From Candidatus Parcubacteria bacterium (GTDB lineage: Bacteria > Patescibacteriota > Minisyncoccia > UBA6257 > JAGOQP01): DNA of 64,000 bases. The stretch is from positions 173,638 through 237,637 of the forward strand of contig AP024682.1 in NCBI GenBank assembly GCA_025999395.1, written 5' to 3'. Positions 2,643 through 63,616 of this stretch are shown here, in pieces. The notes under the pieces were generated by a model. The model was not told the origin of the DNA and did no database searches. It saw nothing but the letters and a program-made list of their open reading frames with translations. A program made the position numbers and the translations under genes. Within the stretch, counting starts at the first letter, position 1; each line of letters opens with the position of its first letter.

Positions 2643-4607
2643 ATGTTTTACTATTTTATTTTTACTCCTTTAGTCTTGGCCATTCTTTACGGTCTTTATC
2701 TAATTTTTTGGCTTAAGAAAAAACCAGTGGAAGATGAAAGAATGAAGGAAATTTCTAAAGCCATTCAGGAAGGAGCCAGCGCTTATTTAGCACGTCAATC
2801 AAGAACGGTGGCTGTAGTAGCAGCGGTTTTGGCGGTAATTATTTTCTTAGCTTTAGGTTGGAAAACTGCTCTAGGATTTCTTGTTGGAGGACTAACCTCC
2901 GCTTTGGTGGGTTATATTGGAATGAGGGTGGCGGTTAATTCTAACGCCAAAACCACTCAAGCGGCCAAAGAAGGAGTTAACTCGGCCCTTTCCTTAGCTT
3001 TTAAGGCGGGATCAGTCACCGGACTTTTGGTGGCAGCTTTGGGATTATTAATTGTTTCTCTTTTTTACTTTCTTTTCAAAGACTTGGCGGCGTTAGTGGG
3101 GCTTTCTTTTGGAGCTAGCTTGATTTCAGTATTTGCTCGTTTGGGAGGGGGAATTTATACCAAAGCGGCTGATGTGGGAACCGACTTGGTAGGTAAAGTG
3201 GAAGCTGGAATCCCCGAAGATGATCCGCGCAACCCCGGAGTGATTGCGGATAATGTAGGAGATAATGTCGGCGATTGCGCGGGAATGGCAGCTGATCTTT
3301 TCGAAACTTATGCTGTTACTTTAACAGCGGGAATGCTTTTGGGCTTAACGGCTATTGGAACCACTATCTCGGTTGTCTTTCCTTTGGTAATCGGAGGAGT
3401 TTCTTTGGTGGCTTCTATTTTAGGATTCTTTTTTGTTCGCTTGAAAAAGAATGATTTTAATATTATGAAGGCTCTTTATAAAGGGTTGGGAGCTTCTTTA
3501 ATTTTATCAGCGATTGGATTTTATTTAGTGAGTCGTCTTTTCTTTGGCGCGGGTTATCTAAAAATCTTTCTTTCTTCTTTAATTGGCTTGGCGGTAACCG
3601 CATTAATGGTAATGATTACTGATTATTTTACCGCCAAAAAATATCGTCCTGTTCAATCGATTGCTCAAGCTTCTTCTTCGGGGCATGGGACTAACATTAT
3701 TATGGGAATAGCGGTTGGATTTCAGTCAACAATTTTGCCGGTAATTGTAATTTGTTTGGCTATTTGGGCAGCTTATTCTCTGGAAGGTCTTTACGGAGTA
3801 GCTATTGCTTCAACAGCGATGCTTTCGGTGGCTGGAATTGTTGTTTCGATTGATTCCTTTGGTCCAATTACTGATAACGCTGGAGGAATTGCGGAAATGA
3901 CTCAGCAATCAGAGGAAATTAGAAAAGTTACCGATGCTTTGGATGCGGTAGGAAATACTACTAAAGCCGTTACTAAAGGGTATGCTATTGGTTCGGCGGG
4001 ATTGGCGGCTTTGGTTCTTTTCTCAAGCTATGTAGAAGAAATCAAGGGAATTAGTTTTGATTTGAGCAATCCTTTGGTTTTAGTCGGCTTACTTTTGGGA
4101 GCGGCAGTTCCTTATTTGTTTGGTGGAATTACTTTAAAATCAGTAGGAAGAGCAGCGGGAGCGGTAGTAGAAGAAATTCGTCGTCAGTTTAGGGAAATTC
4201 CCGGTCTTCTTGAAGGAAAAGCCAAACCTCAATATGGTCAAGCGGTAGACATTGTCACTAAAGCGGCTTTAAAGGAAATGATCCTTCCTTCTTTAATTCC
4301 GGTAATAACTACTTTGCTGGTGGGTTTTGTTTTGGGAGCAACAGCTTTGGGAGGATTTTTGATGGGAGTAATTATTTCTGGCTTGTTTATGGCATTATCA
4401 ATGACTACCGGAGGAGCAGCTTGGGATAATGCCAAGAAGTTTATTGAAGAGGGAAATTTTGGAGGAAAGGGTTCGGAAGCTCATAAAGCAGCGGTAACTG
4501 GTGATACCGTTGGCGATCCTTACAAAGACACCACTGGTCCCGCTATTAATCCTCTTATTAAGGTAATCAACATTATCGCTCTTTTGATTGTTAAGTTCTT
4601 AAGGTAA
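2643..4607 (+). CDS. hppA: membrane-bound proton/sodium-translocating pyrophosphatase (V-type H+-PPase)
   Basis: 654 aa polytopic; signature motifs [18 protein letters not shown] and [22 protein letters not shown]. Confidence 0.9.
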
Positions 4608-4633
4608 TTTTGGAAATATTGCTTAATTTGTTT

Positions 4634-39414: not shown

Positions 39415-42400
39415 ATGTTTAAAATGGTTTTTATGCTAATCAACTTAAAATCTTTTAACCCTTCGGAGGTTGAAGAAAAAGTTCTTCAATTCTGGAAGGA
39501 AAAAAATATCTTTCAAAAAACTTTAAATCCCAAGGGGAAAAAGAAAAAATTCTTTCATTTTTGGGAGGGCCCTCCTTACGCTAATGGACGGCCGGGAATT
39601 CATCATGTTTTGGCTAGAGTGTTTAAAGATGTTTTTTTGCGTTACAAAACGATGCAGGGGTTTATAGTTCCCAGAAAAGCTGGTTGGGATACTCACGGTC
39701 TTCCTATTGAAATTGAAGCAGAAAAAGATTTTGGAGTTAGCTCTAAAGTGGAGATAGAAAAAATAGGAATTGATCGTTTTAATCAAAAAGCCAAAGAAAT
39801 TGTTTTCCGGTGTAAGGATGAGTTTGAAAAAATGACTGAACGAATTGGTTACTGGTTGGATTTAAAAAATGCCTATGTAACTTACTCTCCGGATTTTATT
39901 GAAAGTTTGTGGTGGGTGTTTAAAAGAATTTATGAGAGAGGTTATTTGAAAGAGCTTTACCGAGTAGTTCCTTATTGTCCGCGATGTCAAACTCCTTTAT
40001 CTAATCACGAACTGGGTCAGCCGGGAGTTTATAAAAGCGTTCCCGATCCTTCTTTGTTTGTAAAATTTCCTTTGGCAGGAAAAGAAAACGAATTTCTTTT
40101 GGTTTGGACCACTACTCCCTGGACTTTGCCGGCGAATGTTGCAGTGGCAGTGTTACCGGAAGGAGATTATGTAAAGTACAAAGTTGGCCAAGACTATCTC
40201 TGGATGCTTGAAGGGGCACCTTTTTTGAGAGAGAAATTTGAATTAGAGGAAGTGGAAAGAAAAAAAGGAAAAGAAATGGCTGGCTGGAAATATCAACCGC
40301 TTTATCCTTTAAAACAAAAAATTAATTTACCAATTGAGCCTTACAGCGTCCTTTTAGCAGATTTTGTTTCAATGGAAGAAGGGACAGGATTGGTTCATAT
40401 TGCTCCCACTTTCGGGGAAGATGACTTTAATTTAGTTTTTGCTCAGGGAATTAAAGAAAATCATCATCTGCCCCACACCGTTGAGGATGATGGAACGATG
40501 GCTAAAGAAGTAATTGGAGAAGGGCTGCCGATAAAAGAAGCTGATAAAGTAATTCTTCAGGATTTAGAAAAAAGGGGATTAGTTTTATTGGTGGATAAGA
40601 TAGAGCACGAATATCCTCACTGTTGGCGTTGTTCTTCTCCCTTGATTTATTTTGCTAAAAAGTCTTGGTTTTTTGAGGTTTCTCGCTTAAGAAAAGAATT
40701 AGTAGAAGCTAATCAAAAAATAAACTGGTACCCTGAATATCTAAAAGAAGGAAGATTTGGAAATTGGATCGCCGAAGCCAAAGATTGGTCTATTTCTCGC
40801 GATCGCTTTTGGGGGACGCCTCTCCCAATTTGGCGTTGTCAGAAATGCCAAAAGTTAACAGTAGTAGGAAGTTTTCAGGAATTATTTTCCTTACAACCCC
40901 ACGAAGAACCAAATAAATATTTTCTTCTTCGTCACGGAGAGGCGGAAAGTAATATTAAACAAATTGTTGATGCTGATCCTAAAAACAAAGACAGGGTTGG
41001 TTTAACTTCAAAAGGGAAAAAACAAGCTCAGCAGGTAGCCAAAAAGTTAAAAAAGGAAGGAGTTGATTTAATTTTTTCCTCTGATTTTCGAAGAACTCGA
41101 GAAACAGCTGAAATTATTGCCAAGGAATTAGGCATCAAAAAGGTTATTTTTGATGAGCGCTTAAGAGAAATTAATGTGGGAATCTTTCACGGGCATAATG
41201 TCCAAGATTATCACACTTACTTTCCTTCTTATCAGGATAAGTTTCAAAAACAGCCGGAGAAGGGAGAAAGTCTAAAAGATGTTTCTAAAAGAGTTTGGGA
41301 TTTTGTTAAAGAGGTGGAAAAGAAATATCACGGCAAAAAAATTTTGATAGTTAGTCACGAGTATCCTTTGTGGATGCTTTATTCGGTGATTAAGGGTTTG
41401 TGGCAGGAGCGCTCGATTCGGGAAAAAGAAGAAAGGGGTAATGATTTCTTAAAGCCAGCCCAATTTGAAGTAGTTGATTTTGCTTTAGTGCCGCGAGATG
41501 AGTGGGGAATGGCTGACTATCATCGCCCTTATGTAGATAAGATTTCGCTTAAGTGTCAGCATTGCGGATCTTTAGCTAATAGGATTTCTGATGTAGCGGA
41601 TGTTTGGTTTGATTCAGGAGCAATGCCTTATGCTCAAGAACATTGGCCTTTTTCTAAGATAAAAGAAGGATCATCGATTTCTGATTTTGATAAAAAATCT
41701 CTTAAAAAACCGGATCGTTTTCCAGCCGATTTTATTTGTGAAGGAATTGATCAAACAAGAGGCTGGTTTTACACTCTTTTAGCAACCGCGGTGCTTTTGG
41801 GAATGGGTACTCCTTACAAAAATGTGGTTTCTTTGGGATTGGTTTTAGATAAATATGGTCAAAAAATGTCAAAATCTCGCGGTAATGTAGTCGATCCTTG
41901 GTCGGTTATCAATAAGTTTGGAATCGATGCGGTGCGCTGGTATTTTTATTCAATTAATTCTCCAGCTGAGCCTAAAAACTTTGATGAAGAAGAAATAAAA
42001 AATTCCTTAAGAAGGTTACTGATGCTGGTTTACAATTCCTTTGCTTTTCTTCAGCTTTATGGGCAAAGGCGCCTACCTTTAGAAAAAACTCCTTCTTTAA
42101 AAAATCCCTTAGATCAATGGATTCTTTTGCGTCTTAGCCAAACCGCTTTAGCGGTTGAAGAAAGAATGGATAATTATGATGTTTTAAAATCAACTCAGTT
42201 AATTGAAGAGTTGGTGGATGATTTGTCTCGTTGGTATATTCGCCGCTCGCGAAGAAGATTTCAAAAACCAGATTTAGATTCTTTACAAGGAAAGAAGGAT
42301 TATCAAAATGCTTCTTGGGTGTTGGCTTTCGTTCTTTTAAATCTTTCTAAGTTGTTGGCTCCGTTTATTCCTTTCTTTGCCGAAGCTCTTTATCAATCTC

Positions 42401-42990
42401 TAAAGAAGCTTTATCGATTTAAGAGTCAGGATTCAGTTCATTTGGAAGAGTGGCCTTCTTTTTCCCGCCCCTCTCGTAAAGAAGCAAAGCTTTTAGAAGA
42501 AATGTCCAAGATAAGAAATTTGGCATCATTAGTTTTGGCTAAAAGAATAGAGGTAAAAATTAAAGTTAAACAACCCTTATCGGTTTTGAGAATAAAGAAT
42601 CCAGATTTATGGGTAGACAATCCCGGACTTTTGAAAATTTTAGCTGAAGAAGTAAATGTTAAAGAAGTAGTGTTTGATAAAGAAATTAATCAGGATTTTG
42701 AATTGGACACCACCATCACTCCCGAATTAAAAACCGAAGGAATTCTAAGAGAATTATCAAGAAATATTCAAGACTTAAGACAAGAAGCTGGCTGTCTTCC
42801 TAAGGATAAAATTAATCTCTGGTTTGAAGGTGATAAAAATCTTTTAAGTTTGGTAGAAAATAATCTTTCTTGGATAAAAGAAGAAGTGAGCGCTAAAAAT
42901 ATAAGATTTGAGCGCTCAGCAAAGGTAACTGCTCAAATGGAAACCAAGATTGATAATCAAAGAATTTGGATTGGCCTTGAGGTAGTTTAG
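39415..42990 (+). CDS. ileS: isoleucyl-tRNA synthetase with an inserted histidine-phosphatase (phosphoglycerate-mutase-like) domain
   Basis: HIGH region PPYANGRPGIHHVLARV, CP1 editing domain (TTPWTLPAN), Zn knuckles YCPRCQ / HCWRC, KMSKS (GQKMSKSRGN); about 190-aa insert (nt 40915-41490) with RHG (LLRHGEAESN), RRTRETAE, REINVGIFHG, IVSHEYP motifs between CQKCQK and CQHCGS. Confidence 0.85.
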   Translation: MFKMVFMLINLKSFNPSEVEEKVLQFWKEKNIFQKTLNPKGKKKKFFHFWEGPPYANGRPGIHHVLARVFKDVFLRYKTMQGFIVPRKAGWDTHGLPIEIEAEKDFGVSSKVEIEKIGIDRFNQKAKEIVFRCKDEFEKMTERIGYWLDLKNAYVTYSPDFIESLWWVFKRIYERGYLKELYRVVPYCPRCQTPLSNHELGQPGVYKSVPDPSLFVKFPLAGKENEFLLVWTTTPWTLPANVAVAVLPEGDYVKYKVGQDYLWMLEGAPFLREKFELEEVERKKGKEMAGWKYQPLYPLKQKINLPIEPYSVLLADFVSMEEGTGLVHIAPTFGEDDFNLVFAQGIKENHHLPHTVEDDGTMAKEVIGEGLPIKEADKVILQDLEKRGLVLLVDKIEHEYPHCWRCSSPLIYFAKKSWFFEVSRLRKELVEANQKINWYPEYLKEGRFGNWIAEAKDWSISRDRFWGTPLPIWRCQKCQKLTVVGSFQELFSLQPHEEPNKYFLLRHGEAESNIKQIVDADPKNKDRVGLTSKGKKQAQQVAKKLKKEGVDLIFSSDFRRTRETAEIIAKELGIKKVIFDERLREINVGIFHGHNVQDYHTYFPSYQDKFQKQPEKGESLKDVSKRVWDFVKEVEKKYHGKKILIVSHEYPLWMLYSVIKGLWQERSIREKEERGNDFLKPAQFEVVDFALVPRDEWGMADYHRPYVDKISLKCQHCGSLANRISDVADVWFDSGAMPYAQEHWPFSKIKEGSSISDFDKKSLKKPDRFPADFICEGIDQTRGWFYTLLATAVLLGMGTPYKNVVSLGLVLDKYGQKMSKSRGNVVDPWSVINKFGIDAVRWYFYSINSPAEPKNFDEEEIKNSLRRLLMLVYNSFAFLQLYGQRRLPLEKTPSLKNPLDQWILLRLSQTALAVEERMDNYDVLKSTQLIEELVDDLSRWYIRRSRRRFQKPDLDSLQGKKDYQNASWVLAFVLLNLSKLLAPFIPFFAEALYQSLKKLYRFKSQDSVHLEEWPSFSRPSRKEAKLLEEMSKIRNLASLVLAKRIEVKIKVKQPLSVLRIKNPDLWVDNPGLLKILAEEVNVKEVVFDKEINQDFELDTTITPELKTEGILRELSRNIQDLRQEAGCLPKDKINLWFEGDKNLLSLVENNLSWIKEEVSAKNIRFERSAKVTAQMETKIDNQRIWIGLEVV

Positions 42991-54665: not shown

Positions 54666-55325
54666 TCAAACTTTGATAGTTTTTATTTCTTTTATTAGTT
54701 GTTTTATCCTTTTCCCCCACAAGCTATTTTTTATTTTGTTATCTACTTTTTCAAACAATGTTTCTAATTTTTTTAGGTAGTGTTTGCTTTTTTCAAACTG
54801 TTTTGTGAGGTTGTAAAACTTCACCAAGTTTGAGTAACACGCCCAGTTGTTTGGCTCAATTTTCATTCCTTTAAGTAGCCATTTTTCGGCGTTTTTGTAA
54901 TCTCCAATGGATTCATAAATGAATCCCACATTTTGGACATAAATTCCATAATCTAATTTATTCTGTTTAGCTAATTTAATAGCCTTTTTGGCGTAGGGGA
55001 GAGCTCTTTTGCTTTTTCTGTGCCATCAAACTCTTCCTATTCCCCAAACTGCTCCGGGAAGTTTTGGATTTATTTTTATGGCCTTTTGATAAAACTTAAT
55101 TGCTTTGTCTTCTAATTTTTTCCTTTCTTGTCCCTTCTTTCTTAAAGCAAGGTGGTCGTACAATAAACCTAAATGACAGAGAAAAAAATAATTTCTTGTC
55201 ATCTCTCTATTTTTACGCCCCAGCTTTTCCAGTTGTTGTATTCCCCATTTATATCTGTAGTTATTTGCGGCAGCTCTGAAAATCTCTTCTATCTTTTTAG
55301 ATTTATCTTCTTTTGGTTTTTCCAT
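54666..55325 (-). pseudogene. TPR-repeat protein gene interrupted by a single in-frame TGA (55028-55026 on minus strand)
   Basis: track ORFs 55026..55325 and 54666..54929 are in the same frame; read-through gives continuous TPR sequence ...GAVWGIGRV*WHRKSKRALPYAKKAIKLAKQNKLDYGIYVQNVGFIYESIGDYKNAEKWLL... Confidence 0.55.
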
Positions 55326-55545
55326 AATTACGAATATAAATGATCTCAGTATTTAATAGTACTCTAAATTTACTGGTTTTTGTATACTTGAGCTGACTTC
55401 TATTATAACTAATGCCCAATTTTATTTATTCGATGTTTTCACTACTTTCTAAAAATCAGCGGAGAGATTATGCAATTGTTGATTCTTATTTGTTTATGTT
55501 TGTTTTGGGTTATTGTATAATTCGAGTAAAATACACTGAAATACA

Positions 55546-55860
55546 GTGAAAGAAAATATGAAGGAAAAAGAAGTAAAAATAACAAGGAGTTACGAGCATG
55601 CAGATAAAGGAGAATTAGAATGGAAGGAATCTGAGGCAAGAAGAATAAGGGAAAGAATCATAAATTTAAGAAGGGATCAAATCGGAGCTTTGTCGTATTT
55701 GATTGGCGTAGAGTTTCCAAGAGACGAACTTGATCAGATTGTGTTGGAAATAAAAGAAAATGGCCAAAATTCTGTTAATATAGACGCCATTGTCTATGAA
55801 GCGGAATCAAAAGAAAAATTACTTTGGTGGCTTGATTATTTTGAGCGGCGCAACAAGTGA
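55546..55860 (+). CDS. hypothetical 104-aa protein, copy 1 of duplicated module (identical to copy 2)
   Basis: MKEKEVKITRSYEHADKGELEWKESEARRIRERIINLRRDQIGALSYLIGVEFPRDELDQIVLEIKENGQNSVNIDAIVYEAESKEKLLWWLDYFERRNK; no recognisable domain. Confidence 0.5.
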   Translation: MKENMKEKEVKITRSYEHADKGELEWKESEARRIRERIINLRRDQIGALSYLIGVEFPRDELDQIVLEIKENGQNSVNIDAIVYEAESKEKLLWWLDYFERRNK

Positions 55861-55990
55861 TTTTTTTATTGGTTTACGCCTTCTTTTTTATATTTATACT
55901 TAAACAAATACAGTATTGACTTAAAAATTATTTCTTATAATAATAATTATTGAAGCCGAGAGATTGGCTCTCGGCATAGCACATTAACAA
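55558..55990 (+). repeat. 433-bp direct repeat copy 1 (gene + promoter/5'UTR), 1 mismatch vs copy 2 at 58796..59228
   Basis: nucleotide identity from the ATG through ...ctctcggca[t/c]agcacattaacaa; both copies followed after about 22 divergent nt by shared CCCCAGAAAGGAGGTGAGA RBS block. Confidence 0.9.
55916..55944 (+). promoter_or_regulatory. promoter-like TTGACT ... TATAAT/AATAAT plus 8-bp perfect hairpin (gccgagag-attgg-ctctcggc) in the 5'UTR of peptide gene A; same in copy 2
   Basis: TTGACT 55916-55921, TATAAT 55936-55941 (14-nt spacer) or AATAAT with 17-nt spacer. Confidence 0.35.
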
Positions 55991-56034
55991 AGTTTAGACC
56001 TGGGTGAGATATCCCCAGAAAGGAGGTGAGAAGA

Positions 56035-56187
56035 ATGGCTCGCAGAAAAACATCTAGAATTCTCCGTGCTATTCGTCGAGAGGTGAAGAAGGAGAAAAAG
56101 CTTCATTTCAAGATTCGAATTACACCTGGTTGCAGCGAACTGAATTGCAGTACTTACTGCTCTGATCATGAGGATGCTGATCACTAA
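56035..56187 (+). CDS. 50-aa Cys-rich peptide A (putative RiPP precursor): basic leader + C-terminal core ITPGCSELNCSTYCSDHEDADH
   Basis: ATG 56035 nine nt after GGAGGTGA; MARRKTSRILRAIRREVKKEKKLHFKIRITPGCSELNCSTYCSDHEDADH; stop TAA 56185; below ORF-track size cutoff; directly upstream of rSAM/SPASM gene. Confidence 0.55.
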   Translation: MARRKTSRILRAIRREVKKEKKLHFKIRITPGCSELNCSTYCSDHEDADH

Positions 56188-56203
56188 CGAGAGTGGTTCT
56201 CGA

Positions 56204-56242
56204 GGGGGCGTAGTTGTCTTTTTTTAAAACAACTGCGCCCCC
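56204..56242 (+). promoter_or_regulatory. 14-bp stem-loop (GGGGGCGTAGTTGT / ACAACTGCGCCCCC) between peptide A and the radical SAM gene; no T-run
   Basis: one G.U pair, 10-11-nt loop; typical position of the processing/attenuator hairpin that sets precursor:enzyme stoichiometry in RiPP operons. Confidence 0.5.
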
Positions 56243-56276
56243 ACCGTATTTGTGCGAAGATGTAAGGAGGTGTAGG

Positions 56277-57359
56277 ATGAGAAAAAAGATGACAGTTATG
56301 ATATTACCGGTGGGATTAAGTTGTAACATGGCCTGTAAGTATTGTTATCACGATGGCAGGCCGCGTGTGAACGAGAAGCAAAGCAGAATGTCAGTTGATT
56401 TATTAAGAAAGTTGATTAAAGACAGCGCAGAATTAGCCAGTGATATTGATTTTGTTTGGCATGGAGGAGAACCGCTTCTTGCTGGAATGGAACACTTTAA
56501 GACCGCCATTGATATTCAAAGGAAGACTTGTTTTTCGGGGCGAGTCAGAAACATCATTCAAACCAATGGGGTTCTTTTGAATAAATCTTGGTGTCGATTT
56601 CTTTCGCTGAATCATTTCATAATAAGTACAAGTCTTGATGGTCCTGCAGAAATCAATGATGCAAATCGTCTTTTATTAGGAGGTGGAAAAACCTATCATC
56701 GTGTTGCAAGAGCGGTTCGATTATGGAAGCAAACCGGTAATCAAATGGGAGCTGTTGCTCTAGTAACCAGAACAAATGTAAGGTATCCTGCAGAAACGTA
56801 CAGAGGCTTGAAAAGAGTAGGTTTTAAGAGTTGTGCTTTTCACGTCTGTTCTCAAAATGATGATCAATCTGTTGATCTTGTACCCTCTGCTGAAGAAGCG
56901 GCTTATTTTCTTAAGTCGGTTTTTGATTTGTGGTTCGAGGAGGATGATCCCACGTTTTTAATTCGCAACTTTAGGAATGTTTTGAGAGTGTTGTGTGGGG
57001 GAGTAACAATTGATTGTGCCTCTCGTGTTGATGGTTGTTGGGGATTTATAGCCGTTACTGCTAACGGAGATGTTTATCCTTGTCATCGATTTGTCAACAG
57101 AACCAATTTTCGATTAGGAAATATATTAGAAGAAAGCCTCTCGGCTCTCTATAAGAAAGGATATTCACTTTACAGAGCGATGTGTTCTCTACCCGAAGAG
57201 TGTGAGCGGTGTGAATGGATAAATGTTTGCGGTGGGGGATGTGCATACGAACGTATCGTGGTTAATGGTTCTTTTCAAAGTATTCACCCAGCTTGTGAGG
57301 TAAAAAAAGAACTTTTTGCTCACATAAAAATCAAAACAAACGAGCTCATAAAGAAGTAA
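56277..57359 (+). CDS. radical SAM enzyme with C-terminal SPASM domain (anSME / peptide-maturase family)
   Basis: ATG 56277 with RBS AAGGAGG (track ORF extends upstream to 56214); CNMACKYCYHDG (CxxxCxxC), HGGEPLL, C-terminal CHRFVN...CERCEWINVCGGGCAYE auxiliary-cluster motif. Confidence 0.8.
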   Translation: MRKKMTVMILPVGLSCNMACKYCYHDGRPRVNEKQSRMSVDLLRKLIKDSAELASDIDFVWHGGEPLLAGMEHFKTAIDIQRKTCFSGRVRNIIQTNGVLLNKSWCRFLSLNHFIISTSLDGPAEINDANRLLLGGGKTYHRVARAVRLWKQTGNQMGAVALVTRTNVRYPAETYRGLKRVGFKSCAFHVCSQNDDQSVDLVPSAEEAAYFLKSVFDLWFEEDDPTFLIRNFRNVLRVLCGGVTIDCASRVDGCWGFIAVTANGDVYPCHRFVNRTNFRLGNILEESLSALYKKGYSLYRAMCSLPEECERCEWINVCGGGCAYERIVVNGSFQSIHPACEVKKELFAHIKIKTNELIKK

Positions 57360-58017
57360 CGAGCCGTTTCCGCACGGAGATGGCTCTTTTTTTTACCACA
57401 ATCCGAGCTATGGCGTGCTTATGTGGTTCTGGGTAACCCTGATGCCCTCTATCTTTTATTATTTCTTCTCTATAAAAAATTTTTTCGAAGTTTTCTTTAT
57501 CGAAGTGCTTAATTAACTCTTTAGGCTTGAGAAAATACCATTTATTTCCCTTTTTATCCCGAAAGGTCCTTTCGCTAGTTTTTATAAACTGTTTTGATCT
57601 ACTCATCTTTTTAAACATTTCGTCTTTAGTAGTGAAAGAAGAAATTATTATCAGTCCGTTTTCTTTTACCGCTGTTTTCATTTTTTTTATGATCGAGTCA
57701 AATTCTTTTTTTGAAAGAAAGAAGAGAGAGTTCGTTGCAATAATAGCAGAATAGTAGTTTTTGCGGAAAGAGAAGTCGCGGATATCTTTATGCTTAGCTT
57801 TGATGGATATATTTTGAGATTTGGCCAATCTCTTTATTTTTTCTATCTGGTTATTGTTTTTGTCAACCGCTGTTACTAAAAATCCTTTACTTGCCAGAAA
57901 CAAAGAGTTATTTCCTCTTCCACAACCCAAGTCTAACACTCTGCCTTTTGGTATGTACTTAACAAATTTACTTATTAGCGGAGAGGGTTGGTATTTGTGT
58001 TTATTATCCCGCTTCAT
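57346..58017 (-). CDS. class I SAM-dependent methyltransferase (TehB-like)
   Basis: VLDLGCGRGNNSLFLASKGFLVTAVD motif I; convergent with rSAM gene (14-nt overlap). Confidence 0.7.
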   Translation of the reverse strand: MKRDNKHKYQPSPLISKFVKYIPKGRVLDLGCGRGNNSLFLASKGFLVTAVDKNNNQIEKIKRLAKSQNISIKAKHKDIRDFSFRKNYYSAIIATNSLFFLSKKEFDSIIKKMKTAVKENGLIIISSFTTKDEMFKKMSRSKQFIKTSERTFRDKKGNKWYFLKPKELIKHFDKENFEKIFYREEIIKDRGHQGYPEPHKHAIARIVVKKRAISVRKRLVTSL

Positions 58018-58149
58018 AATCTAAGTTTTTTGTTTAATTTAGAAAAGATGGGTCTGGAGCAAACGATACTTCAAGTTTAAATTTGTATTTATTATAGTAT
58101 AGTATTAAAAAAGTTAAAAAATATCTCGTTTTTTAGCGTATTCATAAAA

Positions 58150-58668
58150 ATGACTCAAACAGAAGTAACTCAAGAAATAAAAGACATTGTCTCAGAATTT
58201 AAAACAAATGGCTTGCTGAGAATTTTTGAGATTCTAGAGTGGATTCATAAGAATTTAAAAGTAAGCCAGGACAGGGAGTATAAAAGAAAATACTTCAGAT
58301 CACGCACCTCTGATGAAATAATAAAGAGCAAAATGTTAACCGGTTGCACCGATTACGCATTGGTTTTTTTGTCTCTTATCAGAGCTAGCGGATTTGAGGC
58401 TAAATATGTGGAAGCGATTGAGACGGTGTGGTTGGAACGCGGTTGCGATGAGATTTTGGGGCATGTTTTTGTTGAGGTTTTACTCGACAATAAGTGGCTT
58501 ATCGTCGATCCTCAGGGGGCCGCAATAAAAGCGTGGTACGGAAGACGCTATGTAATATACGCTAAGGGAAATGATTCTTGGGATTTGGGAATAAAAAATT
58601 TTGATGACCTAAAAAATAAATTTATTGAATACAGAGAAAAATATTTCAATAACAGCAGAAACCCTTAA
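58150..58668 (+). CDS. transglutaminase-like cysteine-protease superfamily protein
   Basis: core LTGCTDYALVFLSLIRASGFEAKYV...GHVFVEVLLDNKWLIVDPQ (Cys-His-Asp arrangement). Confidence 0.5.
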   Translation: MTQTEVTQEIKDIVSEFKTNGLLRIFEILEWIHKNLKVSQDREYKRKYFRSRTSDEIIKSKMLTGCTDYALVFLSLIRASGFEAKYVEAIETVWLERGCDEILGHVFVEVLLDNKWLIVDPQGAAIKAWYGRRYVIYAKGNDSWDLGIKNFDDLKNKFIEYREKYFNNSRNP

Positions 58669-58795
58669 GCGATGAGCACAGGCTTCTGGTTTTCAGCATC
58701 TCCCCAGAGAGCAACAACAAAAATAGAGCCACACAGACTTGATCATGTCTCTAAAGTGTTCAACCTTAATAAAGCGAATAAAATTTTCAATTCTT

Positions 58796-59098
58796 ATGAA
58801 GGAAAAAGAAGTAAAAATAACAAGGAGTTACGAGCATGCAGATAAAGGAGAATTAGAATGGAAGGAATCTGAGGCAAGAAGAATAAGGGAAAGAATCATA
58901 AATTTAAGAAGGGATCAAATCGGAGCTTTGTCGTATTTGATTGGCGTAGAGTTTCCAAGAGACGAACTTGATCAGATTGTGTTGGAAATAAAAGAAAATG
59001 GCCAAAATTCTGTTAATATAGACGCCATTGTCTATGAAGCGGAATCAAAAGAAAAATTACTTTGGTGGCTTGATTATTTTGAGCGGCGCAACAAGTGA
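58796..59098 (+). CDS. hypothetical 104-aa protein, copy 2 (identical protein to 55546 gene)
   Basis: track ORF 58739.. has spurious upstream extension; identity begins at ATG 58796. Confidence 0.5.
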   Translation: MKEKEVKITRSYEHADKGELEWKESEARRIRERIINLRRDQIGALSYLIGVEFPRDELDQIVLEIKENGQNSVNIDAIVYEAESKEKLLWWLDYFERRNK

Positions 59099-59228
59099 TT
59101 TTTTTATTGGTTTACGCCTTCTTTTTTATATTTATACTTAAACAAATACAGTATTGACTTAAAAATTATTTCTTATAATAATAATTATTGAAGCCGAGAG
59201 ATTGGCTCTCGGCACAGCACATTAACAA
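58796..59228 (+). repeat. 433-bp direct repeat copy 2
   Basis: see copy 1; single t/c difference. Confidence 0.9.
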
Positions 59229-59275
59229 GTTGTGTGAAGCGGGTGAGGCTTCCCCAGAAAGGAGGTGAGATGATT

Positions 59276-59404
59276 ATGAAAATTCCCAAGAAATTTAGTT
59301 GGAGAATTGCTGTTGAACCGAGAAAATCAGTTCCGTGCTCCTCCGTCTTTCAAACTCAATGCAGTTGTGGCGGCAGCAGTTGCTGCGGCAAGTGTGGCAA
59401 GTGA
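59276..59404 (+). CDS. 42-aa Cys-rich peptide B (putative second RiPP precursor), 7 Cys in C-terminal 22 residues
   Basis: MKIPKKFSWRIAVEPRKSVPCSSVFQTQCSCGGSSCCGKCGK; ATG 59276 ten nt after GGAGG (alternative ATG 59270); stop TGA 59402; below track cutoff. Confidence 0.5.
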   Translation: MKIPKKFSWRIAVEPRKSVPCSSVFQTQCSCGGSSCCGKCGK

Positions 59405-59426
59405 TCGAGCGACGTTTTAAGTTCTC

Positions 59427-59465
59427 GGGGTATTATGGAAATAGTCATAATACCCCATTTTTTTA
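59427..59465 (+). terminator. rho-independent terminator after peptide B (ggggtattatg-gaaatagt-cataatacccc + ATTTTTTT)
   Basis: 11-bp perfect stem followed by T-run. Confidence 0.75.
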
Positions 59466-59474
59466 CAGTTTATT

Positions 59475-60281
59475 TTATGATTCTATTATTTTGTCAGAGC
59501 TGATTTGAATAATTTTTTTCCAAGAAAGCTTCGGGTGTTTATTTCTGAATTTCTTCATAAAATAGTATCCAATTGAGTATCCTGTCCACTGCTTATATTT
59601 TTTATTTCCGTAAAATATTTTCTTATATAATCCAATACCATTTTTGTTCAAGTATGACTTTAGTGTTTCAAATTGCCTAATAGTTTCCTCTTCTGTTAAA
59701 GCCAGGGTCCAAGGAGAGCGACTACCTTTAACTATCTCCTCTCTAAAAACTTCTGCCATTCCCTCCATTGCCATATATGTTCTGAGGTTATACGATTTTT
59801 CTTTATGGTATCTGTAGAATACTAAATGATTCCACTCATGTGCGATGGTTTCTGTTAAGGATTGTTTACTATAATTATTTGGGTTTATAAATATGTGCAT
59901 AGTGTAATAAGTTGCAAAAGCTGTTACTCCTTGAAAAAGAGAGAGTTTTTTTGTATTAGGAAACCACGGATATATAAAGATAAATATGGGTGGATCTGGG
60001 TGTGGTAAAAATTGATGGCATTTTTTTAGTGTCTTGTGGATGTTTTTTTTGATAAATGATTTTTGTTTTATTGAAAGTGGTTGATACTGAATAAAATTAC
60101 TTCTACTCACATATGATTCTAAATCTTTTTGAAATTTCTTTTTATTTGAGTAGCCAACATATTTAATATTCCCCGACTCTTCCATTTCGTTTATAATCAA
60201 CCCAACAAGCTTTTGTTCGCTTCTAAGCCGATGTATCTTTTTAGGAAAGCAGAAGTTGATTTTTGCTAAGCTTAGATCCAT
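59475..60281 (-). CDS. putative Zn-metallopeptidase-like protein (HExxH ... E motif)
   Basis: ETIAHEWNHLVFYRY (HExxH) and downstream MAMEGMAEVF; no signal peptide; convergent on peptide B. Confidence 0.45.
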   Translation of the reverse strand: MDLSLAKINFCFPKKIHRLRSEQKLVGLIINEMEESGNIKYVGYSNKKKFQKDLESYVSRSNFIQYQPLSIKQKSFIKKNIHKTLKKCHQFLPHPDPPIFIFIYPWFPNTKKLSLFQGVTAFATYYTMHIFINPNNYSKQSLTETIAHEWNHLVFYRYHKEKSYNLRTYMAMEGMAEVFREEIVKGSRSPWTLALTEEETIRQFETLKSYLNKNGIGLYKKIFYGNKKYKQWTGYSIGYYFMKKFRNKHPKLSWKKIIQISSDKIIES

Positions 60282-60658: not shown

Positions 60659-60791
60659 TGAAAATTTTTATTCGCTTCCGATACTACTGAATTGTTGGTC
60701 TTACGGGGTTTTTGAATCTAAGTTTTTCTTGGGTTTAAAAACCCCGTAAGACCTGAACCTTTTAAAGGCAGGCAGGGAAAAGGAGGCAGCC

Positions 60792-61952
60792 ATGAACCGC
60801 AAATGTTTTGGCGTGTTTATTGTTATGGCGGTTCTTGCCGCCATAACAAATCAAGCGGAGCCGGCGGCATCTTCACCTTCTGAAAGTGTTTCGAGCATAA
60901 TAACGCTTGAAGCGAACAGCATGTCTCGTGCTGGCTACGGTGCGGTGGAAGCTAACTACTGGATGGACCAACTCGGATTTACTCGAGATCCGGCCGTTAT
61001 CCAAGATGCCATGGATAGATACTACATGTTTGCTCCAGAAGGAATGCCGAGGCGTTGGGGTGATGGTTGGCTTAGCAAATTCGTTGCTAGTTTGCTAGCG
61101 ATTAGGGCGTGGGATATTCGCGACAAGCTGACAGAACCTCAAAAGTCCCAGCTCAATGAAATCCTTACAGATGCGATTCGGGAGGAAACATTTCGACTGG
61201 ATATGACTTGTGGTATCGACCCTTGGAATTCCTGCTCCGAAGACTTCGTTTCTTACTTAGCCCTACTTTCTCGGGTAAAGAACCTTTATCCTACTGTTGC
61301 AGAAAAAGCTGGAATCGGTTATGTGAGTAGTTTGGAGCGAAAATACTTAGAACTCACCTTTTCTACAGATAAAGGTTACTACTCGCTGGTTCGCGAACAA
61401 ACTCAAGATGGTATGCGGGTGTTGATGCACAACCATGGAGAGCAATCAGCGGTTTACACGGGCCTGCTTTTAATCTATTTAAACCACACTCTGCGAGCTT
61501 ACTCTTTAGCAAACAATCCTCTGCCCGACTATTTTTGCCAGGACTGGTTGATGGCCAACATCCGGGACATGTTTGAGTGGCTTCAATCGGTTTCGACTTC
61601 TGATGGGCTCTCCTTTTTAAACAGTTGTCTAAACGCTGAAGGCAATTTAGTCTCCTGCTCTGATATGAAGGTAGCTAATGCTGTTCCTAGAGTCGTACCT
61701 GCTGGTCGCCTGATGGTGAATTTAGTAACGAGCGGCGTTTTCAAGACGGAGGAGATCTTTTCTCTCCACGAATACCATTACCGCTTCTTTGATATAACTT
61801 ACAACGGCGGCAACATTTCAAACAATGGTCGACGCGCTGATTACAATTTGGATAATCAGGAGTTCGAGGTTCTGTGGGAAAACCCCTGCCACCTCTCTTC
61901 TCATCATTCGCTGAGACAACCACGCAGACACCTTCGCTCTGTTGATAAATGA
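60792..61952 (+). CDS. secreted protein of unknown function, paralog A (GC-rich copy)
   Basis: signal peptide MNRKCFGVFIVMAVLAAITNQA; shares blocks AVEANYW, GWLSKFVAS, FRLD.TCGIDPWNSCSEDFVS.LAL..RVKN.YP, NHGEQSAVY..LLLIYLNH with 62156 gene; GC3-rich codons unlike neighbours. Confidence 0.5.
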   Translation: MNRKCFGVFIVMAVLAAITNQAEPAASSPSESVSSIITLEANSMSRAGYGAVEANYWMDQLGFTRDPAVIQDAMDRYYMFAPEGMPRRWGDGWLSKFVASLLAIRAWDIRDKLTEPQKSQLNEILTDAIREETFRLDMTCGIDPWNSCSEDFVSYLALLSRVKNLYPTVAEKAGIGYVSSLERKYLELTFSTDKGYYSLVREQTQDGMRVLMHNHGEQSAVYTGLLLIYLNHTLRAYSLANNPLPDYFCQDWLMANIRDMFEWLQSVSTSDGLSFLNSCLNAEGNLVSCSDMKVANAVPRVVPAGRLMVNLVTSGVFKTEEIFSLHEYHYRFFDITYNGGNISNNGRRADYNLDNQEFEVLWENPCHLSSHHSLRQPRRHLRSVDK

Positions 61953-62155: not shown

Positions 62156-63616
62156 ATGGGGGAAAAATTTGATAATCGTAATCATTCATCTGAAAATGTT
62201 TCTCAGGAAACAGATGAAAGGTCTCGGAAGAGAGAGGGAGGAGCAAAAAAATACCTAAAAAAGGTAGCTGCTCTGATTTTAGGAGCGGCAGCAAGTTTTT
62301 CTTCTGGTGGAGAGTTGGCGAGCCGGTCACTTTTTGAAACTTTTGAGGAAGAAGAAAAAACCGCGGTAGCGCAGGCATCAGAAATTCAAGATTCGTTAGA
62401 AAATAATTCCCTTTCTTTTCTTACGCCAGAGGAAATAAAGGAAATTAATTTCTTAATAAAGGAAGCTATTAAAAAAGAAGTAGAAGCCTCTACTAAAAAA
62501 GAAATAAAAGCTTCCACCTTGGAGACCGATCCTTTAGGAAATAATTGGGAAAGATCTTTGGAGGGGGCGGTTGAGGCTAATTATTGGAGTAATGAATTAG
62601 GATTGACAGAAGAAGATTTAAAAAAATTTGAAAACAATCCTGAAGAATTTGGAAGGAATTACGCAAAAACAATTCAGCGCGCTCTTGATAGTTACTATCT
62701 TATTGCTTCACCAGGTGCTCCTTACAAATGGGGAAATGGCTGGCTTTCTAAATTTGTGGCCAGCAATTTAGCAATCAATGGTTATAGATTTAGAGATTAT
62801 CTTTCTAGCGAACAAAAAGAACAATTAAATACAGTTTTGGCAGATGCGGTTAAACTTTCTACTTTTCGATTGGATACCACTTGTGGGATTGATCCTTGGA
62901 ATTCTTGTTCAGAAGATTTTGTTTCCTTTCTAGCTTTAATTGCTCGAGTAAAAAACTTTTATCCGGAGGTTGTTTCACGAGTCGAGAAAGAATTGGGGGA
63001 AGATTATTTTATTAATGTAGAAAAAAAATTTCTTGAGCTTACTTTTACGGACGAAAATGGATTCTATTCGTTAGTGAGAGAAGAAACAGGGTTACAAGAC
63101 GGAGTTTCTTATGTATTGGCTCGAAATCATGGTGAGCAATCAGCAGTTTATAGTGCACTTCTACTTATCTACTTAAATCATGCCTTGGCATCATATCCGC
63201 TTAGTGGCAATAAAATCCCTGGTTTTTATCGAGATAGTAAGATTATTGAAAACATTAAGTCTTTATTTTCCTGGCTTCAGGAAGTGAGTTCTCCTGATGG
63301 AAATTCATTTTTGGGGGCTTGTCAAACTTCTGGAAAAGAAATTGTCGCTTGTAATGATTCTAAAGTAGCTAATGCTATTCCTAAAGTGTTACCAGCTGGA
63401 AGATTGATAAAAAATCTGATAGTTGCTGGAGTTTTGCCGAAAGAAGTTTTTAAAGAAAACAAGTATCATTATCTTGATTTTGATTCTTCTTATGAGGGGG
63501 GGAATATAAAAAACAAGGGTCGGCAAGAGGATTATAATTTAGATAATTTAATGTTCGAGCGAGGGAGGTTGGTATTTATGCTCCCTCCAATAAGAAGAGT
63601 TTTAAGGGGTCGTTGA
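62156..63616 (+). CDS. secreted protein of unknown function, paralog B (AT-rich copy with extra N-terminal acidic/Lys-rich region)
   Basis: homologous to 60792 gene over about 330 aa. Confidence 0.5.
   Translation: MGEKFDNRNHSSENVSQETDERSRKREGGAKKYLKKVAALILGAAASFSSGGELASRSLFETFEEEEKTAVAQASEIQDSLENNSLSFLTPEEIKEINFLIKEAIKKEVEASTKKEIKASTLETDPLGNNWERSLEGAVEANYWSNELGLTEEDLKKFENNPEEFGRNYAKTIQRALDSYYLIASPGAPYKWGNGWLSKFVASNLAINGYRFRDYLSSEQKEQLNTVLADAVKLSTFRLDTTCGIDPWNSCSEDFVSFLALIARVKNFYPEVVSRVEKELGEDYFINVEKKFLELTFTDENGFYSLVREETGLQDGVSYVLARNHGEQSAVYSALLLIYLNHALASYPLSGNKIPGFYRDSKIIENIKSLFSWLQEVSSPDGNSFLGACQTSGKEIVACNDSKVANAIPKVLPAGRLIKNLIVAGVLPKEVFKENKYHYLDFDSSYEGGNIKNKGRQEDYNLDNLMFERGRLVFMLPPIRRVLRGR

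Follow-up and report, generated by a model that had tools for sequence, protein, structure and literature searches.

A probable peptide-maturase operon of Patescibacteria with a recurrent hairpin between the precursor and radical SAM genes

Stem-loops follow the structural genes of lantibiotics, sactipeptides and lasso peptides, occupying the nisA-nisB, sboA-albA and lasso A-B gaps. In the mccA-mccB system, an intergenic terminator gives rise to two RNAs, a short one for the precursor, which is abundant, and a minor one made by read-through (Zukher et al. 2014, PMC4231749). The locus described here comes from a Candidatus Parcubacteria metagenome-assembled genome (MAG; GCA_025999395.1, contig AP024682.1) and has a similar layout: a gene for a 50-residue peptide, peptide A, is followed by a hairpin with a 14-bp stem and then by a gene for a radical S-adenosylmethionine (SAM) enzyme with a SPASM domain. 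All coordinates refer to the window, the stretch of 64,000 nt that was analysed out of the 561,860 bp of the contig (a 562-kb genome). We propose, with a probability of about 0.7, that these elements form a precursor peptide-radical SAM operon in which the hairpin sets a high ratio of substrate to enzyme. The features on which this proposal is built are as follows.

55916..55944, plus strand: sigma-70-like promoter TTGACT-17-AATAAT of the peptide A/radical SAM operon, with 10 of 12 consensus matches; function predicted from the consensus alone.
55955..55975, plus strand: GC-rich stem-loop of 8 bp, GCCGAGAG-ATTGG-CTCTCGGC, close to where the transcript is predicted to begin and identical in a copy at 59193-59213.
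56020..56026, plus strand: ribosome-binding site (RBS) AAGGAGG of peptide A, 8 nt ahead of the ATG at 56035, read directly from the sequence.
56035..56187, plus strand: gene for the 50-residue precursor peptide A (ATG 56035-56037, TAA 56185-56187), with homologues in about 30 loci.
56188..56202, plus strand: small hairpin of 5 bp, CGAGA-GTGGT-TCTCG, abutting the peptide A stop codon, taken from the folds.
56204..56242, plus strand: hairpin with a 14-bp stem, the proposed attenuator or 3'-end-protecting element, placed by folds of the window and by positional conservation.
56264..56270, plus strand: the radical SAM gene's RBS, AAGGAGG, 6 nt ahead of the ATG at 56277, read directly from the sequence.
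56277..57359, plus strand: gene for a 360-residue radical SAM/SPASM peptide maturase resembling anaerobic sulfatase-maturating enzymes (anSMEs), identified through Pfam, NCBIfam, alignment and a PDB match.
57361..57394, plus strand: canonical intrinsic terminator with an 11-pair stem and T8, which ends the radical SAM operon and lies within the 3' coding end of a convergent methyltransferase gene.

The open reading frame (ORF) of 50 codons that the initial annotation had placed at ATG 56035 behind a strong RBS is present, preceded by AAGGAGG at 56020-56026, and its translation is MARRKTSRILRAIRREVKKEKKLHFKIRITPGCSELNCSTYCSDHEDADH. The leader is basic, as had been claimed, with 13 Lys/Arg among its first 30 residues where 10 had been counted, and it carries the sequence SRILRAIRREV. 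The core, CSELNCSTYCSDHEDADH, contributes seven Asp/Glu/His residues, and the peptide contains three Cys (C33, C38 and C42), not the four previously assigned to its C-terminal 18 residues. This composition is compatible with thioether links without being diagnostic of them.

A protein search of 5.8 billion clusters matched peptide A to itself alone. The peptide family is therefore essentially invisible in protein databases, and the comparative evidence was taken from a six-frame analysis for small ORFs in metagenomic loci fetched through the enzyme (numbered below with the prefix L) and in two NCBI MAGs. Neither Pfam nor NCBIfam matched peptide A or the two other small proteins discussed below, peptide B and orf100, and the window holds no further paralogue of peptide A. 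The exact sequence of peptide A in the protein collection comes from Logan assemblies only, whereas its neighbours bear consecutive NCBI accessions: BCX15972.1 for the radical SAM enzyme, BCX15973.1 for the methyltransferase (tag _202) and BCX15974.1 for a transglutaminase-like protein (tag _203). To judge from these accessions rather than from the record itself, peptide A thus appears to be missing from the annotation of the deposited MAG.

Conservation of this small ORF, the lack of which had been named in advance as a point against it, is extensive. In about 30 independent Patescibacteria loci the orthologue of the radical SAM gene is directly preceded by a homologous small ORF, and nearly all loci with sufficient upstream sequence have an ORF of 38-66 codons whose end lies 50-116 nt 5' of the enzyme gene. 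When the related ORFs are aligned, their leaders share S-[KR]-I-x3-I-[KR]-x-E-V and their cores share CSExNC(S)xYC(S/D)D(H/W)HDxD, also rendered as CSExNCSxYCSDHHDADH, in which the equivalent of C42 is invariant and that of Y41 nearly so. When the core codons of five relatives were compared with those of the window, 47 differences were synonymous only and 8 changed the amino acid, revealing clear selection on the peptide as a protein. The stretch from 56035 to 56187 is a real precursor-peptide gene under purifying selection.

The gap of 89 nt between the peptide A stop codon and the radical SAM start codon at 56277 contains, at 56204-56242, the stem of 14 bp that had been reported there, with one G·U pair and no U-tract. 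Its 5' arm, GGGGGCGTAGTTGT (56204-56217), pairs with its 3' arm, ACAACTGCGCCCCC (56229-56242), around a loop of 11 nt that is able to add three A-U pairs. The hairpin starts 16 nt past the stop codon and ends 21 nt before the RBS of the enzyme gene and 34 nt before its ATG. In the tail, ACCGTATTTGTG, a U-tract next to the stem is absent, and a short, interrupted U-rich run begins 5 nt downstream. Calculation of the RNA fold energy, proposed earlier as a check, bears the structure out: the intergenic RNA (about 90 nt) folds at −35 kcal/mol with z = −3.8 and none of 200 shuffles as good, and removal of the RBS region brings z to −6.0. At −27.7 kcal/mol, the hairpin itself is the second-strongest local fold on the plus strand of the window, and it is retained when the whole predicted 5' transcript is folded. 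A search of the window found no second copy of the hairpin sequence, which is not a dispersed repeat, and a search of Rfam with positions 55300-59700 at E ≤ 1 found no known RNA family over the hairpin or the 5' untranslated region (UTR). The same search gave a PyrR match at 57267-57394, over the terminator at the end of the operon, which was sub-threshold (28.6 against 54 bits) and was taken as chance.

Two further RNA structures were noticed. The strongest hairpin of the window, at 60697-60753, has arms of 26 nt that are 88% complementary, folds at −30.9 kcal/mol and lies just upstream of the gene for a protein of 386 residues. In both the minimum free energy (MFE) fold and the centroid fold of the predicted transcript, UACACCU within the codons of peptide A (approximately 56121-56129) pairs with AGGUGUA (56267-56273), which overlaps the RBS and spacer of the radical SAM gene, and the pairing closes a multiloop around the hairpin. 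Such pairing could couple translation of the enzyme to that of the peptide, or could be due to chance.

The hairpin occupies the position at which, according to the initial annotation, RiPP operons (operons for peptides that are made on ribosomes and modified after translation) place a partial terminator or a processing element, and this placement is supported by the presence of a strong hairpin in the same gap of nearly all related loci. The comparison covered 29 gaps, 28 from related loci and the window's own, with scoring based on MFE. A GC-rich stem-loop was found in every gap but that of L123, and in 20 of the 29 gaps no more than 10 of 200 dinucleotide shuffles were as stable. Three more loci (L095, L096 and L099) have hairpins of −19 to −21 kcal/mol beyond the trimmed ends of their gaps. 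A hairpin is likewise present in the gaps of the two nearest relatives, and L164 has a stem of 11 bp with T7 directly after it, at a distance of 12 nt from the RBS. Stem sequences are unrelated between clades, while position and structure are conserved, and three sub-clades show double substitutions that preserve pairs (U-A to C-G, C-G to U-A, and AU/UA to GC/CG).

These observations bear on the idea that the inverted repeat has no function in RNA, being either a DNA operator or a chance or selfish palindrome. A 14-bp inverted repeat could bind a dimeric regulator, and the neighbouring orf100, whose function is unassigned, might be cast in that role. Operators, however, are normally conserved in sequence and located at promoters, and what the relatives hold is the pairing and not the sequence, as their unrelated stems and compensatory changes attest. 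The element is also unique in the window, and many of its counterparts have T-runs on the transcribed strand only. We consider an operator or a palindrome without RNA function highly improbable.

Tails of the related hairpins help to distinguish the ways in which an RNA hairpin could act. Read by eye, the 8 nt past the stem include 4 or more T in about two thirds of the gaps, which gives these hairpins the look of intrinsic terminators, and 5 or more in roughly half; these fractions are approximate, with stem ends set by eye, and the window tail was judged by a stricter terminator scan. An automated count assigned at least 5 T of 8 to 10 of the 29 gaps, an imperfect figure in that it chose another hairpin in L107 and lengthened the window stem by a mismatched pair, making it falsely terminator-like. 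Textbook terminators are found in L164, L120, L098 and L086, and a T-run past the stem is missing from the window copy and from about a third of the others (L091, L094, L103, L109, L110 and L112).

The hairpin might instead serve as a processing or stability element, with 3' decay or cleavage leaving the peptide segment protected and the ratio arising by differential decay. The very stable stem (about −27 kcal/mol) and the lack of an adjacent U-tract, both in the window and in about a third of the related hairpins, are what such an element would lead one to expect, and the stem-loop at the 5' end of the UTR also hints at a stabilised message. Against it stand the T-rich tails of about two thirds of the related hairpins, several of them textbook terminators, which point to termination as the ancestral function; moreover, an RNase site is not predictable from sequence. 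On balance, an element acting through RNA processing alone seems unlikely to us, though it deserves serious consideration.

Consistent with partial termination is the contrast between the internal hairpin and the ends of the transcription units. Both peptide transcription units end in a canonical hairpin with T8 or T7, whereas the internal hairpin lacks a U-tract and was not called by the terminator scan, which fits a partial rather than a full stop. A consensus-based scan of the plus strand from 55944 to 56982 for promoters of the E. coli type found no promoter-like site. With no promoter detected between that of the peptide and the enzyme gene, the enzyme is probably expressed by read-through from the peptide promoter.

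The same data speak to a stricter version of termination, in which the hairpin would fully terminate a monocistronic transcript of the peptide gene and a separate promoter would serve the radical SAM gene. In some bacteria a very strong hairpin can cause termination even when its U-tract is imperfect, and Patescibacteria promoters are poorly known. But just 34 nt separate the stem from the ATG of the enzyme, and 21 nt separate it from the RBS; in the related loci, too, only 10-50 nt lie between the end of the hairpin and the enzyme start, leaving no room for a promoter. Together with the negative scan of 55944-56982, this makes full termination very unlikely.

The preferred reading, an operon with a leaky or protective hairpin, would work as follows. 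A single transcript from the promoter at 55916-55944 would carry both peptide A and the radical SAM/SPASM enzyme. Its 5' UTR extends for about 90 nt between the promoter and the peptide gene and starts with the GC-rich stem-loop of 8 bp (55955..55975), which may stabilise the 5' end of the transcript. The hairpin at 56204-56242 would mark the 3' end of an abundant short RNA for the peptide alone, either by leaky termination or by blocking a 3' exonuclease, and a minority of polymerases would read through into the enzyme gene, resulting in a high ratio of substrate to enzyme. The enzyme would then modify the core CSELNCSTYCSDHEDADH, most likely by a radical cross-link in the Tyr-Cys region (Y41/C42), and a methyltransferase and a transglutaminase-like Cys protease would probably complete maturation.

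Several points weigh against this scheme. Co-transcription and the effect on the ratio are themselves inferred from sequence. The promoter scan used an E. coli-type consensus, which may overlook promoters of Patescibacteria. Lacking an adjacent U-tract, the window hairpin may support classical intrinsic termination weakly or not at all. Shuffles were the sole control for the hairpin. L123, with a gap of 28 nt, has no hairpin, and in L095, L096 and L099 the hairpin is not in non-coding sequence but within a stretch that extends the enzyme ORF at its N-terminus. Finally, no conserved exporter or immunity gene was found among the cluster loci.

The extension shared by L095 (approximately 657-720), L096 and L099, which form one sub-clade, comprises 17-20 conserved residues, M-E/K-S/T-I-I-x-K-G-G-L...P-P-C-x-K-R-T, within whose coding sequence the hairpin is contained, and the Pro-Pro pair is encoded by the C-run of the 3' arm of the hairpin.

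The enzyme encoded downstream of the hairpin has the Pfam domains Radical_SAM (2.3e-12) and SPASM (1.8e-8). Its CX3CX2C motif, at C16/C20/C23, is invariant in 26 homologues, as are eight Cys of the SPASM region (C247, C254, C269, C309, C312, C318, C322 and C340). Because the radical SAM motif begins at residue 16, there is no room for an N-terminal RiPP recognition element (RRE). The start codon is the ATG at 56277 and not at 56278; a TTG at 56214, inside the hairpin, was considered as a start and ruled out by the strong RBS of the ATG at 56277 and by the N-termini of the homologues. About 50 relatives share 40-65% identity with the enzyme, and nearly all of them are Patescibacteria. A scan of genome contigs with the enzyme returned, among the matches listed, mostly distant anSME-like genes (Bacteroidales and others) with at most 36% identity, and the informative loci came from the metagenome scan.

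The enzyme falls below the cutoff of every curated family. Its best NCBIfam match is the anSME model TIGR03942, at 261.9 bits against a cutoff of 349.45, followed by the DynA model at 229 bits (cutoff 450). The cyclophane models AmcB (138.5 bits, cutoff 425), GrrM (138, cutoff 310) and YhhB (132, cutoff 445) all score below their cutoffs, as do the ranthipeptide/SCIFF/PapB models TIGR03974 (105.5, cutoff 425) and NF047865 (139.7, cutoff 340), and the cutoffs of XyeB (450 bits), FxsB (370) and DarE (650) were not reached either. The closest solved structure is that of anSMEcpe (E = 2e-50 to the PDB chain), and CteB (PDB 5WGG) is matched at E = 3.5e-24.

The deposited protein, BCX15972.1, has 343 residues, is named 'anaerobic sulfatase maturase' and starts 17 codons downstream of the ATG at 56277. 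If that name were right, the enzyme would be a true anSME and the small ORF before it would be spurious; the best NCBIfam and PDB matches are indeed to anSMEs, in agreement with the name. This account is effectively refuted: the score of 262 bits falls short of the cutoff of 349, the large ORFs of the 64-kb window were searched and none showed a sulfatase domain, peptide A is without the sulfatase motif C/S-x-P/A-x-R, and the small ORF is under purifying selection beside the enzyme in about 30 loci. The deposited name is very likely wrong, and the deposited start looks wrong as well, the RBS and the N-termini of the homologues backing ATG 56277.

As to chemistry, the Cys- and Asp/Glu-rich core of peptide A would suit thioether links. 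Core types differ between clades, comprising CSES, DWHD and YGD-repeat types, and the motifs Y-C-S, H-E-D/H-H-D, W-H-D and Y-G-D recur in the peptide family, though the presence of a motif does not by itself show a cross-link. In distant clades of the enzyme family (L113, L124 and L115) the cores have one Cys or none, so a thioether is not the family-wide reaction unless the chemistry has diverged; the distant-clade cores carry repeated Y-G-D, W-H-D or H-H-D motifs, nearer to the aromatic-X-X pattern of cyclophane-forming enzymes.

Two neighbouring genes are candidates for later steps of maturation.

57346..58017, minus strand: gene for a TehB-like SAM-dependent methyltransferase, identified by a Pfam match and convergent with the radical SAM gene.
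58150..58668, plus strand: gene for a protein of 172 residues with a transglutaminase core (papain-like Cys protease fold), identified by a Pfam match.

The methyltransferase and radical SAM genes overlap tail-to-tail by 14 nt, and the terminator hairpin of the operon (57361-57394) falls within the last 16 or so methyltransferase codons, where the homologues of that protein show no conservation. A convergent methyltransferase gene directly follows that of the enzyme in 21 related loci, and in the closest relative the two are co-directional; the TehB-like methyltransferase is a probable tailoring enzyme. In distant clades (L107, L113, L115-L119, L123 and L124) a gene for a transglutaminase-like protein lies directly downstream of the enzyme gene. 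The segments GCTDY, GHVF and VDP of this protein resemble a Cys/His/Asp triad, as judged by eye and not by alignment to a reference core, and a role as leader peptidase is plausible.

The content of the cluster raises the question of whether the product is exported at all. Like PqqA/PqqE or MftA/MftC, the system might instead turn its peptide into a cofactor or metal-binding factor that stays inside the cell. The cluster has no conserved exporter, immunity gene or dedicated secretion protease domain; what recurs is a set made up of the peptide, the radical SAM/SPASM enzyme and the methyltransferase, to which the transglutaminase-like protein is sometimes added; His, Asp and Glu abound in the core, where one Cys is invariant and one Tyr nearly so; and the family is widespread in genome-reduced Patescibacteria. 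All of this would suit a cofactor, but no conserved redox enzyme partner stands beside the cluster, and the considerable variation of the core between clades is more typical of natural products or signals. A cofactor role strikes us as doubtful.

The operon is also accompanied by a duplication, which involves the following elements.

55558..55860, plus strand: first copy of orf100, encoding a conserved hypothetical all-alpha protein of 100 residues, known from its ORF, the duplication and a predicted model.
58796..59404, plus strand: second copy of the cassette, with orf100 at 58796-59098, the promoter at 59154-59182, the UTR hairpin at 59193-59213 and peptide B.
59270..59404 (alternative start 59276), plus strand: ORF of peptide B, 44 residues with six Cys, MIMKIPKKFSWRIAVEPRKSVPCSSVFQTQCSCGGSSCCGKCGK, followed by the terminator at 59427-59463.
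59427..59463, plus strand: canonical intrinsic terminator with a 12-pair stem and T7, 3' of peptide B.

A block of 421 nt at 55557-55977, containing orf100, the promoter and the first hairpin of the UTR, is repeated with 100% identity at 58795-59215, so that the promoter at 59154-59182, 5' of peptide B, is identical to that at 55916-55944. Past the block, the two copies can still be aligned over a further 57 nt, as far as the RBS, but have diverged there (to 56034 and 59273). The repeat has the look of an expression cassette recently copied by duplication or gene conversion, each copy standing directly before a different Cys-rich small ORF. The second copy of orf100 has no recognisable RBS. 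Peptide B has no enzyme gene downstream and no homologues in the fetched loci, and its sequence is not in the protein collection.

The orf100 family is a small orphan family; it forms 58 clusters at 50% identity, and its members share the conserved motif SKEKLLWWLDYFE at the C-terminus. Its predicted model is all-helical (pLDDT 84) and has no significant match among the folds of the PDB, the best having E = 2.1. A discrete RRE of the PqqD-like kind was considered for orf100 and ruled out, the all-helical model having no beta-sheet. In L103 a homologue (1008-1310) lies upstream of the peptide A homologue; in L161 two homologues in tandem (2788-3099 and 3501-3824) belong to an ATP-grasp (MvdD-like) cluster that also holds a peptidase M16 and a small ORF rich in Thr, Asp, His and Lys; and in L162 a homologue (96-398) adjoins murC. 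The arrangement in L161 suggests that orf100 is linked to RiPP clusters of more than one class. A DUF6624 protein is encoded beside the ATP-grasp cluster of L161 (5188-5724) and, in the closest relative, L163, immediately upstream of the peptide gene (4130-4633).

Taken together, these features allow a broader reading, which we offer tentatively and regard as unlikely. The locus would be the first example of a family of peptide-derived products confined to Patescibacteria, whether RiPPs or cofactors, in which an RRE-less, anSME-like enzyme installs an undescribed cross-link at the invariant Cys beside the near-invariant Tyr, and on which the TehB-like methyltransferase then acts. A portable cassette of orf100, promoter and structured 5' UTR would be placed before different precursors, here two unrelated Cys-rich peptides, and orf100, with a new all-alpha fold, would regulate or chaperone RiPPs irrespective of their class.

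Elsewhere in the window, the isoleucyl-tRNA synthetase (39415-42990, 1191 residues) has a histidine-phosphatase domain, His_Phos_1 (residues 503-663, E = 2.5e-39), inserted within its catalytic domain. A NusA is also encoded in the window. The genes at 60792-61952 (386 residues) and 62156-63616 (486 residues) encode paralogues without a Pfam match; the former protein has an N-terminus that resembles a signal peptide by eye, and G+C there is 0.45-0.49 against about 0.33 nearby.

Patescibacteria, the candidate phyla radiation (CPR), have tiny genomes and are often reported to be without biosynthetic gene clusters. In one survey of MAGs, those of Patescibacteria contained no such clusters (PMC11613949). 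The present operon has been hidden because its precursor appears to be unannotated and its enzyme is mislabelled as a sulfatase maturase. Literature searches that paired Patescibacteria or CPR with radical SAM, RiPP or ranthipeptide turned up no account of the family, and a full-text search for the core motifs YCSDHH, CDWHD, CSDHHD and YGDAGYGD found no relevant paper. The analysis corrects an annotation, one that relatives have probably taken over, and it supplies a precursor motif and about 30 loci that can be used for genome mining and heterologous expression. It also extends a precursor-hairpin-enzyme layout known in model bacteria to a deep-branching lineage with barely studied transcription signals. 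Its practical value is that of a well-supported lead.

Of the known systems, mccA-mccB offers the nearest parallel for the hairpin, which in both cases stands between a short precursor gene and the gene of the first maturation enzyme. There, a single upstream promoter serves the purpose of a high substrate-to-enzyme ratio, and the same purpose is proposed here from sequence. The mcc element, however, has been proven to be an intrinsic terminator, active in dependence on the binding of ribosomes to mccA, whereas the window copy has no U-tract; the precursor, moreover, has 50 residues instead of 7, and the enzyme is a radical SAM protein instead of an adenylyltransferase. As in nisA-nisB, sboA-albA and the lasso A-B gaps, the precursor comes first and is followed by a hairpin that would allow limited read-through into the biosynthetic genes. 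Systems of the nisA-nisB type belong to Firmicutes and Proteobacteria and have mapped transcripts, whereas the present one belongs to Patescibacteria and its evidence is wholly comparative.

The enzyme itself resembles anSMEcpe (PDB 4K36-4K39; TIGR03942) in its length of about 360-370 residues, its lack of an N-terminal RRE, its CX3CX2C motif and its full SPASM Cys pattern. It differs from anSMEs in that its presumed substrate is a small dedicated precursor without a sulfatase motif, encoded in a window whose large ORFs include no sulfatase. A short adjacent precursor and the lack of an RRE are shared with DynA and DarE (dynobactin and darobactin) and with XyeB, GrrM/OscB, YhhB, FxsB and AmcB; DarE is the closest to anSME outside its own group (PMC10288494). 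The core motifs Y-C-S, W-H-D, H-H-D and Y-G-D would be compatible with the aromatic-X-X pattern of cyclophane enzymes. Scores far below the cutoffs nevertheless separate the enzyme from DynA/DarE and the cyclophane families, as does the invariant Cys, which those families do not require. With PapB, whose model it matches at 140 bits, the SCIFF maturase/CteB and QhpD it shares a precursor core rich in Cys and Asp/Glu and a radical SAM/SPASM architecture, but unlike them it has no N-terminal RRE domain and scores below their cutoffs. Judged by these likenesses and differences in sequence, the locus is an uncharacterised, Patescibacteria-restricted radical SAM/SPASM system of the RiPP kind with a putative precursor-attenuator-enzyme layout.

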